DNA from: an uncultured Clostridia bacterium
GTDB lineage: Bacteria > Bacillota > Clostridia > Oscillospirales > Oscillospiraceae
DNA length: 64,000 nt
Direction of reading: 5' to 3'
NCBI GenBank assembly: GCA_947365965.1
Contig: CANAZG010000004.1
Location: 2,919 to 66,918, forward strand
In this document: piece after piece, positions 12,147-16,562 of the stretch
How the letters are laid out: each line of letters starts with the position of its first letter
How positions within the stretch are numbered: position 1 is the stretch's first letter
Notes under the pieces: model-generated
What the model was told of the DNA's origin: nothing
Database searches by the model: none
The model's input: the letters and a program-made list of their open reading frames with translations, nothing else
Translations under genes and position numbers: made by a program

Positions 12147-13541
<1,395 letters not shown>

Positions 13542-13568
13542 TCAAATATCCTCCGGAGAAAGTTTCTC

Positions 13569-13597
13569 TTGCATTTGCTGCGGCGGGGTGGTATACT
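13569..13597 (+). promoter_or_regulatory. Candidate promoter of an antisense sRNA (Fst-like module)
   Basis: TTGCAT (13569-13574), 17-nt spacer, TGgTATACT extended -10 (13592-13597). It points toward the small minus-strand ORF and drives no protein gene. Confidence 0.55.
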
Positions 13598-13603
13598 GTA
13601 GGT

Positions 13604-13680
13604 GGAATTGAGAAGTATTTCCAAACCTACCCCCTCAGCAAAAAAGGCCCCCGGAGAGCTGGCACTCTCCGGGGGCCTTC
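13604..13680 (+). ncRNA. Candidate antitoxin sRNA (3' end uncertain)
   Basis: Predicted transcript from the 13569-13597 promoter. It contains CCUACCCCCUC, complementary to the SD region of the convergent peptide mRNA, and runs into the shared hairpin 13644-13679. Confidence 0.4.
13644..13679 (-). terminator. Hairpin shared by convergent transcripts; canonical terminator for the minus-strand peptide mRNA
   Basis: AAGGCCCCCGGAGAG / CTCTCCGGGGGCCTT 15-bp stem. The A-run on the plus side gives a U-run on the minus transcript. It lies 16 nt after the peptide stop codon. Confidence 0.7.
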
Positions 13681-13694
13681 ATGCTGTGGCGTGC

Positions 13695-13799
13695 TTACTG
13701 TCCTTTGGGCTTTCCGCCCTGCCGGTCAAGCCACTTGCAGATGTAGCTGGCGGCTACACCCGCTATGACCGACAAAATCAAATCAAGAAGTACTTCCAA
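13695..13799 (-). CDS. Candidate Fst/PepA1-like type I toxin peptide (34 aa)
   Basis: TTG start 8 nt after GAGAGGGGG. Peptide: MEVLLDLILSVIAGVAASYICKWLDRQGGKPKGQ (hydrophobic helix, then a KWLDR basic tail). Own promoter at 13847-13875. It is part of the 87-aa track ORF 13695..13958. Confidence 0.5.
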   Translation of the reverse strand: MEVLLDLILSVIAGVAASYICKWLDRQGGKPKGQ

Positions 13800-13846
13800 C
13801 CATTCCACCCCCTCTCTGTTGCCAGAATGTAAGGGCAGCAACAGAG

Positions 13847-13875
13847 AGTATACCACCATTCGACATTTTTTGCAA
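13847..13875 (-). promoter_or_regulatory. Candidate promoter of the Fst-like peptide mRNA
   Basis: On the minus strand: TTGCAA (13870-13875), 17-nt spacer, TGgTATACT (-10 at 13847-13852). The 5' UTR begins with a 9-bp hairpin CTCTGTTGC/GCAACAGAG abutting the SD. Confidence 0.55.
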
Positions 13876-13899
13876 CATTTGGAAACCGAGGTGCAGCCG

Positions 13900-15156
13900 A
13901 TGAAAAAGCCTTTCGTGACAAAGCAGCAGCTGGACGGCATCACCGCCCAATACCCCACCCCCTTCCACCTCTACGACGAGTCCGGCGTCCGGGCCAACGC
14001 CCGCCGCCTCTGCGCCGCCTTCGCCTGGAACGGCGGCTTCAAGGAGTATTTCGCCGTCAAGGCCACCCCCACCCCCAGACTGCTGAACATCCTCCGGGAG
14101 GAGGGCTGCGGCGCGGACTGCTCCAGCCTCACCGAGCTGATGCTGGCGGAGAAATGCGGCTTCCGGGGCAGCGAGATCATGTTCACCTCCAACAACACCC
14201 TGGCCGAGGAGTACCAGCTGGCCCACCGGCTGGGGGCGGTCATCAACCTGGATGACCTCACCCACGTGGAGTTCCTCCGCCAGTCCATCGGGTGCGTACC
14301 GGAGACCCTGTTCTGCCGCTACAACCCCGGCGGCGTGTTCACCCTGGGGGAGGGCAAGGACGGCGTGCAGGTGATGGACAGCCCCGGGGAGGCCAAGTAT
14401 GGCATGACCCGGCCTCAGATCGCCCAGGCCTTCCGGCAGCTGAGGGACATGGGCGCGAAAACCTTTGGCATCCACGCCTTCCTGGCCTCCAACACCACCT
14501 CCAACGACTACTACCCCGAGCTGGCCGCCATCCTTTTCCGCCTTGCCGTGGAGCTGAGGGAGGAGACCGGCTGTCACATCCGGTATATCAACCTCTCCGG
14601 CGGCATCGGCGTGCCCTACCGCCCGGAGGAGGAGGCCGTCGACATCGCCCGCATCGGCCAGGAGGTCCGGCGGCGGTACGAGGAGATCCTGGTCCCCGCC
14701 GGCATGGGGGACGTGGTCCTGTGCAGCGAGCTGGGCCGGTTCATGATGGCCCCCTACGGCTGTCTGGTCACCAGGGTGCTCCACTTCAAGCACATCTACA
14801 AGGAGTACGCGGGGGTGGACGCCTGCGCCGCGGATCTCATGCGGCCGGCGGTGTACGGGTCCTACCACCACATTACCGTATCGGGGAAGGAGGACGCGCC
14901 CTGCGCCTGCCGGTACGATGTGACCGGCTCCCTGTGCGAGAACTGCGACAAGTTTGCCGTGGACCGGGATCTCCCGGAGCTCCAGCGGGGAGATCTGCTG
15001 ATTATCCACGACACCGGGGCCCACGGTCACTCCATGGGGTATAATTACAACGGAAAATTACGTTCCGCAGAGATTCTGCTCCGTGAGGACGGCTCGACGG
15101 AGCTCATGCGCCGTGCGGAGACTCCGGAGGACTATTTCGCCACCCTGGTGTGGTAA
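13900..15156 (+). CDS. lysA: Diaminopimelate decarboxylase family (PLP-dependent, Orn/DAP/Arg decarboxylase fold)
   Basis: ORF track gives 13765..15156. Start moved to ATG 13900 (MKKPFVTKQQL, GAGGTG SD). FAVKA PLP-lysine motif and GGGIGVPY. Confidence 0.75.
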   Translation: MKKPFVTKQQLDGITAQYPTPFHLYDESGVRANARRLCAAFAWNGGFKEYFAVKATPTPRLLNILREEGCGADCSSLTELMLAEKCGFRGSEIMFTSNNTLAEEYQLAHRLGAVINLDDLTHVEFLRQSIGCVPETLFCRYNPGGVFTLGEGKDGVQVMDSPGEAKYGMTRPQIAQAFRQLRDMGAKTFGIHAFLASNTTSNDYYPELAAILFRLAVELREETGCHIRYINLSGGIGVPYRPEEEAVDIARIGQEVRRRYEEILVPAGMGDVVLCSELGRFMMAPYGCLVTRVLHFKHIYKEYAGVDACAADLMRPAVYGSYHHITVSGKEDAPCACRYDVTGSLCENCDKFAVDRDLPELQRGDLLIIHDTGAHGHSMGYNYNGKLRSAEILLREDGSTELMRRAETPEDYFATLVW

Positions 15157-15444: not shown

Positions 15445-15488
15445 AAGCAACAGATTATTTGATAAACTTTTACTTAGGAGGCGATGCC

Positions 15489-16562
15489 ATGACCCAGCGG
15501 GAGCGGCAAATTCTGCGCTGGATCGAGGAGGACCCCATGATCAGCCAGCAGGAGCTGGCGGACAAGGCGGGGATCACCCGGTCCTCGGCGGCTGTACACA
15601 TCTCCAACCTGATGAAAAAGGGCCACATCGCCGGCCGGGGCTACATCGTGCGCACCGCGCCCTACGCCGTGGTGGTGGGGGGTGTGAACATGGACGTGGG
15701 CGGCCGGTCCTACGAGGGGCTGATTCCCCGTGACTCCAACCCCGGCCGGGTGCGCATGAGTCTGGGCGGCGTGGGGCGGAACATCGCCCACAACATGGCA
15801 CTGATGGGGGTGGAGGTCCACCTGCTCACCGCCTTCGGGGACGACGTATCCGCCCAGAAGGTGGCCGCCTCCTGCGGCGAGCTGAACATCGACATCAGCC
15901 ACGCCCTCCAGGTGCCCGGCGGCGCCACCTCCACCTACCTCTATATTGCTGGTCCCTCCGGGGACATGGAACTGGCGGTGGCGGACATGGAGATCTATGA
16001 CCACGTGACCCCGGCCTTTCTGGCCTCCCGGGCCGCCCTCCTCAACAGCGCCCAGCTGGTGGTGGTGGACACCAACATCCCCGCCCCCTCCATCCAGTGG
16101 CTGGCGGAGAACTGCACGGTACCCCTCTTTGCGGACCCGGTCTCCACCACCAAGGCGGAGAAGCTACGGCCCGTCCTGGGCCGGCTCCACACCCTCAAGC
16201 CCAACCGGCTGGAGGCGGAGCTGCTCAGCGGCGTGGCCATCACGGACGCGGACAGCGCGGGCAGGGCGGCGGAGGCCCTGCTGGAGACCGGACTGCGGCG
16301 GGTATTCATCAGCATGGGCGGGGACGGCGTTCTGGCGGCGGACCACTCCGGGAAGCTCCACGTGCCCTGCATCCCCGGGGAGATGGTAAATACCACCGGC
16401 TGCGGGGACGCCTTTATGGCGGCCATTGCCTGGGCATACTTGGAGGGTACGGACCTGGAGGGGACGGCCCGGGCCGGTCTGGCGGCCTCCTCCATTGCCA
16501 TGGAGAGCGGGGAGACCATCAACCCCGCCATGAGCGTGGAGGGGATCAGGAGCCGGATTTAG
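15489..16562 (+). CDS. psuK: wHTH-fused PfkB-family kinase, probable pseudouridine kinase
   Basis: Start moved to ATG 15489 (AGGAGG SD). N-terminal wHTH (MTQRERQILRWIEEDPMISQQELADKAGITRSS) plus a ribokinase-like core (GGVGRN, TTGCGDAF). The adjacent psuG supports the call. Confidence 0.7.
   Translation: MTQRERQILRWIEEDPMISQQELADKAGITRSSAAVHISNLMKKGHIAGRGYIVRTAPYAVVVGGVNMDVGGRSYEGLIPRDSNPGRVRMSLGGVGRNIAHNMALMGVEVHLLTAFGDDVSAQKVAASCGELNIDISHALQVPGGATSTYLYIAGPSGDMELAVADMEIYDHVTPAFLASRAALLNSAQLVVVDTNIPAPSIQWLAENCTVPLFADPVSTTKAEKLRPVLGRLHTLKPNRLEAELLSGVAITDADSAGRAAEALLETGLRRVFISMGGDGVLAADHSGKLHVPCIPGEMVNTTGCGDAFMAAIAWAYLEGTDLEGTARAGLAASSIAMESGETINPAMSVEGIRSRI

Follow-up and report, generated by a model that had tools for sequence, protein, structure and literature searches.

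The 64,000-nucleotide stretch analysed here (hereafter the window; 62% G+C) belongs to contig CANAZG010000004.1 of an uncultured Clostridia bacterium of the Oscillospiraceae (assembly GCA_947365965.1), and all positions and strands are given in its own numbering. The interval between its asnS and lysA genes most probably holds a chromosomal module that looks like the toxin-antitoxin (TA) systems of type I, with the par (Fst/RNA II) architecture in which a small RNA (sRNA) represses the synthesis of a small membrane peptide. It belongs to the known Fst/Ldr kind, as a divergent member that has so far gone unannotated. The evidence shown here consists of the sequence elements and how well they are conserved, the constraint on the peptide's coding sequence and the co-evolution of the pairing segments. 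An earlier note, made from the letters of the window, had drawn attention to two facing promoters, a shared hairpin and a 34-amino acid (aa) peptide, and our analysis confirmed that these are real and far from chance.

The cassette, which is a single copy in the window, follows asnS (12147-13541, plus strand). We searched the 64 kb with the promoter pattern TTGCAW-N14-TGGTATACT and found two matches facing each other (13569-13597, plus; 13875-13847, minus), compared with the 0.00 expected from 100 dinucleotide shuffles of the window; even the 9-mer TGGTATACT alone is expected only 0.02 times. Both promoters have in common the 11-mer GGTGGTATACT, which has no other occurrence in the 64 kb. Their description as near-consensus in the earlier note holds for the extended -10 boxes, but not for the -35 boxes, which are weak (3/6 matches to TTGACA on the plus strand and 4/6 on the minus strand); promoter strength would reside in the extended -10. 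Between the promoters stands the strong hairpin that the note had reported, with a 13-bp G+C stem (13646-13658/13665-13677) and two additional A-T pairs. It is located between the stop codon of the peptide and the targeting segment of the sRNA, and the sRNA does not overlap the open reading frame (ORF). The hairpin has a good U-run for the minus transcript only (CUUUUUUGCU), the plus side continuing into UUCAUGCU, and U-runs are found on both sides in other loci. We detected no terminator between the end of asnS (13541) and the sRNA promoter, the shared hairpin being the first one downstream of asnS. Read-through from asnS would carry the whole antitoxin sequence in its 3' untranslated region (UTR; 13541-13680, plus), and the supply of antitoxin would in that way be coupled to asnS expression.

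The minus strand encodes the 34-aa peptide MEVLLDLILSVIAGVAASYICKWLDRQGGKPKGQ, from a TTG at 13799 to the stop at 13697-13695. The Shine-Dalgarno sequence (SD; GAGAGGGGG, 13816-13808) ends 8 nt ahead of the TTG, just as had been read before, and the peptide is indeed hidden in the C-terminal part of an 87-aa ORF (13695-13958, minus). AlphaFold2 predicts a single helix from residue 2 to residue 28 (pLDDT 85) with a floppy basic tail; its charged tail, at the C-terminus, reads KWLDRQGGKPKGQ. Within the transmembrane (TM) helix we found the residues S10-V-I-A-G14, an SxxxG motif, and W23 stands ahead of the charged tail. Over a 16-codon core in 24 copies, the entropies at the three codon positions were 0.40, 0.17 and 1.03, a pattern typical of translated sequence, and the peptide is under coding selection. 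The earlier note had made its proposal depend on the persistence of the peptide in close relatives. The peptide proved to be conserved, with third-position wobble, and the 87-aa ORF did not.

The predicted sRNA folds with -42 kcal/mol (z = -5.95) and, in agreement with the note, lacks coding potential: the only plus-strand ORF (GTG at 13602, 76 aa) starts at or before the predicted transcription start site and runs through the terminator. Its 5' segment, DR2, is a diverged direct DNA repeat (read on the toxin strand) of DR1, the translation-initiation region (TIR) of the toxin mRNA, and since the two repeats are transcribed convergently, the two RNAs are complementary there. The pairing of CCUACCCCCUC with GAGGGGGUGG proposed in the note stands, but its length of 10 positions does not, for the complementarity runs on through the start codon to approximately codon 7-8, about 35-40 nt in all. 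RNAduplex gave -49.0 kcal/mol for the window pair (z = -7.4 against shuffles) and -46.7 kcal/mol (z = -7.7) for the pair of L001, a related genome. When partners were swapped, the values were only -29.6 (window toxin with L001 sRNA) and -29.3 kcal/mol, a loss of about 20 kcal/mol in cross-pairing between two modules that have kept their cognate pairing. The par(pAD1)-like layout, with convergent promoters, overlap restricted to the terminator and pairing at the ribosome-binding site (RBS) from outside the overlap, is kept in the relatives as well, both in close orthologues and in 16 species-level genomes from several families of Clostridia.

At least four related genomes, counted at species level, carry the locus between asnS and lysA, with the order lysA-peptide-asnS kept, which answers the question of the earlier note as to whether the cassette adjoins asnS elsewhere. 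In the window, a HTH_24/PfkB-kinase gene (15459-16562) is located downstream of lysA; in L001-L008 it is found across the cassette, past asnS (L001:6507-7580), a local rearrangement around the conserved lysA-toxin-asnS core. When the intergenic regions of seven genomes were aligned, both promoters were invariant or nearly so (one substitution in the spacer of the toxin promoter, in L004), and no change was present in the 5'-hairpin DNA, SD, TTG, terminator or anti-SD. Over 3.1 kb, the window shares 93.5% identity with L001, and the two differ by 32 substitutions in the 380-nt intergenic region, 13 of them in 13779-13802 (toxin codons 2-9) and 8 in 13602-13619 (the 5' end of the sRNA). Among close relatives these are the only two variable patches, and they change together, with the rest nearly fixed. 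As a consequence of this concentration of substitutions, residues 2-8 of the peptide vary (EVLLDLI, YIVISFI, EIILNLI, ELIIGFL, EMLLGFL), and residues 9-27 are almost fixed. Divergence between the window and L001 reaches 44-54% in the pairing patches compared with 6.5% in the flanks, around 7- to 8-fold.

We tabulated the 24-bp helix in five syntenic orthologues (the window, L001, L010, L011 and L012). Compensatory double changes were present at 13 positions and one-sided wobble changes at 6, the remaining 5 being invariant, and 111/120 cells (five orthologues by 24 positions) were paired. Cognate pairs formed 22-23 of the 24 base pairs, compared with 11-21 for non-cognate ones. On a broader scale, we calculated an 18x18 matrix of cognate and non-cognate duplexes, windowed and with the SD excluded; RNAduplex against the whole 260-nt downstream region gave z-scores diluted by long interior loops, and the windowed matrix was used instead. 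The cognate partner ranked first in 13/18 loci, and in a fourteenth it came second, behind a near-identical sibling, with duplexes of -30 to -38 kcal/mol where it ranked first and non-cognate means of -15 to -22 kcal/mol. A direct repeat of the locus's own TIR was found 37-100 nt past the stop codon, beyond the terminator, in 21/21 loci, and in most of them DR2 is followed by a -10 box in reverse complement. The transitions between DR1 and DR2 were biased towards those compatible with G·U pairing (43 compatible vs 15 incompatible, p = 1.5e-4), which argues for selection on RNA pairing and not only for homogenisation at the DNA level.

Regarding the 5' UTR of the toxin mRNA, the 9-bp hairpin that the note had placed next to the SD exists in the DNA (13846-13838/13822-13814), but its 5' arm starts right at the end of the -10 box, and it is probably transcribed only in part, the remainder preceding the transcription start. 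In the predicted fold of the likely transcript, CUGCCCUU pairs instead with AGGGGGUG and covers the SD. Across the 20 loci scored (the L031 entry was invalid, its start not being found), the mean probability of an unpaired SD was 0.27, compared with 0.38 after shuffling of the upstream sequence, a difference that is modest but significant (Wilcoxon p = 0.0016). RNAalifold detected no consensus structure in the 20 5' UTRs. In L016-L018 the SD is predicted to be part of a direct hairpin (CUCUUUCC/GGAAGGAG), and others, including the window, contain a CCCU-type element inside a GUUGYC/GRCAAC stem-loop.

To look at the spread of the family we scanned species-representative genomes with the pattern AA[NS]YICKW and obtained 16 species-level loci, from Oscillospiraceae, Butyrivibrio (cultured isolates, with sp. 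INlla14 and AE2015 for loci L014/L015), Catonella, Fusicatenibacter, Ruminococcus, Lachnospiraceae and unclassified Clostridia. Peptide lengths range over 27-38 aa, with the core [FIL][LI][LI]SV.A[GS][VI]AANYICKW[LF][DG], which is partly imposed by the pattern, as is in these 16 loci the invariance of Y19-I-C-K-W23. W23 is invariant in the 18 aligned members and also in plasmid copies, and the plasmid and phage copies found by tblastn, free of the pattern, still have [HY]Y[IL]CKWLD. S10 is nearly invariant, and G14 gives way to S in several members and to E in the copies from Enterococcus and Streptococcus; hence, the [P/D/S/T]xxxG motif is not universal in the clade. The tblastn search against plasmids matched 385 records (327 from Enterococcus, 33 from Streptococcus, plus Ligilactobacillus, Aerococcus and others), 230 of them conjugative, and no annotated gene lies under any of the plasmid matches listed. 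The copy on a conjugative plasmid of E. hirae (L026; NZ_CP068116.1, 15518-15592) encodes MKYLFDFVFAILAEVAAHYICKWLDCKIAKKDSKPIR and the one on a 6.9-kb plasmid of Mediterraneibacter gnavus encodes MSEFLSFILSVLASVVAYYICKWLDKNDW; a further copy lies on the E. mundtii plasmid NZ_CP018062.1 (L027). The plasmid copies that we inspected (Enterococcus, Ligilactobacillus, Mediterraneibacter and C. perfringens) showed the full layout of toxin, terminator, repeat and convergent promoter, and nearly all homologues have a TGnTATAAT box upstream. An exhaustive search of representative proteins returned 8 hits only, since such peptides are rarely called as genes, and the 87-aa ORF as query retrieved only two close clusters.

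Some genomes contain tandem duplications of the toxin gene (L018:339 and L018:693), and P0003 (100 aa) and P0005 (78 aa) are read-through ORFs with two copies of the peptide, which echo the tandem Fst-A/Fst-B of S. pneumoniae. Two copies from one metagenome-assembled genome (CAKSPU01; L023:2995-3165 and L024:2986-3078) seem to be decaying: a proline is present in each helix (SVPA), the ORF of L023 runs on to 56 aa past the lost stop and an antisense segment that matches it is missing, and L024 lacks an SD. Incidental Rfam matches were a THF riboswitch adjoining the C. perfringens plasmid copy (L030:1-91, minus) and a 5S rRNA gene near the L016 copy (L016:22-138, plus).

The likeness to the Fst/PepA1 class suggested in the note is borne out by the TM helix, the SxxxG motif, the tryptophan and the charged tail, but not by the curated Fst hidden Markov models (HMMs). 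Neither Pfam PF13955 (Fst_toxin), the search that the note had proposed, nor NCBIfam NF033608 gave a match at E <= 10 for the window peptide or 22 other family peptides. In the same scans, the positive controls Fst (PDB 2KV5) and PepA1 (PDB 4B19) were detected with 34.7 and 58.3 bits by NF033608 (cut-off 26) and with E ~1e-5 by PF13955. The nearest curated protein model is NF047374 (C. difficile type I toxins), matched by 17/18 members; the best E was 3e-4 when the family was scanned, and a plasmid copy reached 2.4e-5. Scores stay far below its cut-off of 60 bits, with a maximum of 24.6 and 16.1 for the window peptide. With hhalign, the family aligned with PepA1 at 64% probability (pairwise E = 6e-5), with G to G and W to W in register, and weakly with Fst (22%). 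We set aside the matches of 13/18 members to DUF2158, an unrelated family in which a short C-K-W-x-D motif happens to recur. In PDB sequences, a profile search gave nothing relevant, the motif ICKWLD was not found in the searchable literature, and we found no public names for the protein clusters.

At the RNA level, Rfam RF02442 ('SpF66 sRNA') matches the toxin strand of the window over its full length (13852..13633, minus) with 24.4 bits (E ~5e-4). This falls under the gathering threshold of 42, so we regard the window as a divergent relative of the family. Further matches are given in Table 1. The RF02442 consensus encodes ...DVIAG...CKWLD in frame with the window peptide, the copy in the S. 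sanguinis satellite phage encodes MSDIAIELVLTIMAEVIAGLCLHYLCKWLDSKEDDRD, and the matching loci carry a conserved ORF ending in ...CKWLD... behind a strong SD. RF02442, typed as 'Gene; sRNA', is really the mRNA of a small Fst/Ldr-like peptide. F66 is a 239-nt, Northern-verified RNA of S. pneumoniae TIGR4 encoded between SP2168 and SP2169 (Mann 2012). The tandem Fst-A/Fst-B genes lie between fcsR and adcA, Fst-B being toxic in E. coli, with an antisense RNA of 65-75 nt at the 3' end (Fozo et al. 2010). Judging from the flanking genes and the Rfam consensus, F66 apparently lies in the Fst-A/Fst-B intergenic region, and the 'DXXXG S. pneumoniae clade' of Weaver fits the SpF66 consensus peptide (PMC7472228). 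We found no paper linking srn502 with type I toxins. On the plus strand, cmscan (E <= 10, 13400-14050) detected no Rfam type I antitoxin family, all matches being terminator-driven noise.

Table 1. Predicted features of the asnS-lysA module and RF02442 matches at related loci
Feature	Position	Strand	Basis or score
Antitoxin sRNA promoter: -35 TTGCAT, 17-nt spacer, extended -10 TGgTATACT	13569..13597	+	sequence and relatives
Predicted antitoxin sRNA, ~78 nt: 5' single-stranded targeting segment and terminator hairpin	13604..13681	+	
DR2, the sRNA's anti-TIR segment, with the anti-SD CCUACCCCCUC (13626-13636)	13604..13636	+	
Shared terminator hairpin, sole overlap of both RNAs, probably also asnS terminator	13644..13679	both	
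Predicted toxin mRNA, ~200 nt, ends inferred from the -10 box and terminator U-run	13638..13840	-	
34-aa peptide ORF MEVLLDLILSVIAGVAASYICKWLDRQGGKPKGQ, TTG start, TAA stop	13695..13799	-	
DR1, TIR of the toxin mRNA, SD to about codon 8, target of the sRNA	13776..13814	-	duplex prediction
5' UTR with internal anti-SD CUGCCCUU pairing with the SD region AGGGGGUG	13800..13840	-	minimum free energy folds
Toxin promoter: -35 TTGCAA, 17-nt spacer, extended -10 TGgTATACT	13847..13875	-	sequence and relatives
RF02442, S. sanguinis satellite phage (L031)	L031:541-781		102.9 bits
RF02442, E. hirae plasmid (L026)	L026:563-779		68.4 bits
RF02442, Catonella (L013)	L013:2957-3181		43.5 bits
RF02442, E. mundtii plasmid (L027)	L027:562-777		43.3 bits
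RF02442, four further loci	various		37-28 bits

According to the model that we favour, the minus strand would give rise to an mRNA of about 200 nt for a single-helix membrane peptide of 34 aa, with a strong SD partly masked by an anti-SD in its own 5' UTR, while the facing promoter on the plus strand would produce the sRNA of about 78 nt. As in par, the sRNA would first meet the mRNA at the complementary terminator loops and then zip onto the TIR, where its 5' 33 nt would pair with the SD, the start codon and the first 7-8 codons. The RBS would thereby be occluded and translation blocked, and the duplex could possibly also trigger decay. If made, the peptide would damage the membrane. That both promoters fire, that translation is repressed and that the peptide is toxic to the membrane is what we infer from these elements.

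Several observations weigh against this model or leave part of it less firm. The curated Fst HMMs do not recognise the peptide, and the equation of F66 with Fst-A/Fst-B rests on the flanking genes, with SP2168/SP2169 of TIGR4 assumed to be fcsR/adcA. Masking of the SD is not significant in the window alone, where the probability of an unpaired SD is 0.22 compared with 0.39 when the upstream sequence is shuffled, and 23% of the shuffles are no worse at masking it. Because the hairpin lacks a U-run on the plus side (UUCAUGCU), it is uncertain where the sRNA ends, and the antisense sequence could also be supplied by asnS read-through. Cognate preference is weak in 5/18 loci (L018, L019 and L021, the short 'DGDK' subgroup, plus L023 and L024), and gene conversion between the DNA repeats could explain part of the covariation without selection on each change. 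Finally, in L009:1-723 (ENA ERZ14865205, ~4x coverage) an L010-type toxin (MEIILNLI...) stands next to an L001-type sRNA allele, with a duplex of -33 kcal/mol compared with -42 kcal/mol for a window-type sRNA; L009 is either a chimera assembled from strains that co-exist, or a recombinant that arose naturally and whose antitoxin is mismatched.

One could argue that the locus encodes a regulated small membrane protein and not a toxin, with a non-lethal role, for instance in membrane stress or in the modulation of metabolism, and neither an addiction nor an abortive phenotype. Its stable placement between two housekeeping genes in the related genomes would be in line with this, as would the fact that no phenotype has been linked to the deletion of any chromosomal Fst/Ldr locus (Weaver 2020, PMC7472228). 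We nevertheless consider this role unlikely, given that both the peptide family and the RNA layout are common on conjugative or small plasmids and satellite phages. On such plasmids and phages, the usual role of these modules is addiction. Besides, double repression, by SD masking and by antisense RNA, is typical of genes with harmful products, and a streptococcal Fst homologue, apparently from the RF02442 locus, is toxic when overexpressed (Fozo et al. 2010). The main residual doubt about the proposed module concerns the true toxicity of the peptide in its host.

It could also be that there is no independent antitoxin gene, the hairpin being the terminator of asnS, the plus promoter fortuitous and the antisense sequence part of the asnS 3' UTR, or that the repeat is a DNA duplication without function at the RNA level. 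The missing terminator between asnS and the hairpin would agree with this, and so would the plus promoter, with its -35 of 3/6, which a generic promoter scan did not list. Both versions are nonetheless very improbable, as the plus promoter is invariant in the relatives and has the same 11-mer as the toxin promoter, unique in the 64 kb; in most of the non-syntenic loci and plasmids, where asnS is absent, DR2 is followed by a convergent -10 box; and the 43:15 bias speaks for selection on RNA pairing and not on DNA identity. We give almost no credence to a third possibility, that the peptide and the sRNA are over-interpreted and the real gene is the 87-aa ORF or the 54-aa ORF of the relatives. 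The 87-aa frame is indeed open in the window, and in close relatives gene callers give two protein clusters (P0001 and P0002), both of 54 aa and in the same lysA-peptide-asnS order. Yet the additional N-terminal part overlaps the promoter and the 5' UTR and is kept only in the closest relatives. In distant homologues (L013, L015, L025) the upstream frame is unrelated in sequence and has stops 1-6 codons before the SD-proximal start, and for this reason we regard the long ORFs as open-frame artefacts. The strong SD of the homologues (except L024) is positioned for the short peptide, and no family match backs a longer protein.

With the par-type module as our preferred interpretation, the locus would be an example of such a module fixed in the chromosome of abundant gut Oscillospiraceae. 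Its peptide and RNA family is widespread, from Lachnospiraceae and Ruminococcus to streptococci and hundreds of enterococcal plasmids, and escapes the curated Fst protein models. This speaks for building a new protein HMM and for typing RF02442 anew, as a toxin mRNA. The orthologue series provides unusually clean comparative evidence for an intermolecular RNA helix, and the orthologues are natural matched and mismatched toxin/antitoxin alleles in which to study how specificity is encoded. More tentatively, we propose that the toxin N-terminus with its TIR and the 5' end of the sRNA could be a fast-evolving 'address' under diversifying selection, and that the YICKW clade might be a distinct major branch of Fst/Ldr across Bacilli and Clostridia. 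If this were true, the address would insulate the module of each lineage from related antitoxins, for example those of plasmid or phage copies in the gut, and the first 7-8 residues of the peptide would be shaped mainly by the needs of RNA pairing. What the locus adds to the known systems is the series of intermolecular covariation, 'address' patches that are hypervariable, an unannotated clade whose breadth takes in hundreds of enterococcal plasmids, and a mis-typed Rfam family.

In order to place the locus among known type I systems, we compared it with the features described for them. By definition, a par-like locus has promoters that converge, a terminator that works in both directions, direct repeats sequestering the SD and the initiation codon, and an SD-masking 5' structure (Weaver 2020, PMC7472228), and only Fst/RNAII and SprA1/SprA1as combine an ORF-sparing 3' overlap with an interaction outside the overlap (T1TAdb, PMC8594479). 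The layout of the locus agrees with both descriptions, with the SD-masking structure as a prediction. Peptides of the Fst/Ldr kind have a TM helix and a conserved W before a charged tail (Fozo 2010), together with the [P/D/S/T]xxxG motif (Weaver 2020, PMC7472228). The window shares with par of pAD1 (E. faecalis Fst, RNA I-RNA II) the convergent promoters, the intrinsic terminator as sole overlap, and the DNA direct repeats read in opposite directions, through which the sRNA can pair with both SD and start codon. As in par, a 5' structure that would mask the SD within the mRNA is predicted, though it is not significant for the window alone. The window also shares the TM helix with its [P/D/S/T]xxxG motif (SxxxG here), the W at the helix end and the charged tail; in both cases the repeats are poorly conserved and are specificity determinants (PMC7472228). 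In contrast to par, the window peptide is missed by PF13955/NF033608 and carries the invariant YICKW, its host chromosome is that of an Oscillospiraceae with 62% G+C, and the pairing is one near-continuous stretch of ~35-40 nt with a small bulge instead of separate DRa and DRb. The toxin-side loop, UGCCAG, also differs in having no YUNR motif; by inspection, CUGG is found on the sRNA side, in the loop CUGGCA. The YUNR loop is absent from some Fst homologues (Weaver 2020, PMC7472228), and is thus not strictly defining for par-like loci.

As in SprA1/SprA1as of S. aureus (PepA1), the antisense RNA has an overlap with the mRNA's 3' end and would act on the RBS through a non-overlapping 5' domain (PMC8594479), whereas there is no significant family membership, and PxxxGC and SYWLSRR in PepA1 stand against SxxxG and YICKWLDR in the window. 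The toxin mRNA of the window is in the same toxin-mRNA family as F66/srn502 of S. pneumoniae TIGR4 (RF02442), apparently the RNA of Fst-A/Fst-B, but the streptococcal peptides are of DxxxG/TxxxE types with a longer helix, and Rfam files the RNA as a non-coding sRNA. A large survey in 2010 found very few such systems in Clostridia (review PMC6563280). The type I toxins of C. difficile (NF047374; CD2517.1-RCd8 and others) are, like the window locus, convergent toxin and antitoxin genes in Clostridia; they differ in having peptides of 50-53 aa instead of 34 aa and a long overlap between antitoxin and toxin mRNA that points to a degradation mechanism (PMC6563280), while in the window the overlap is restricted to the terminator, with the pairing taking place at the remote TIR.

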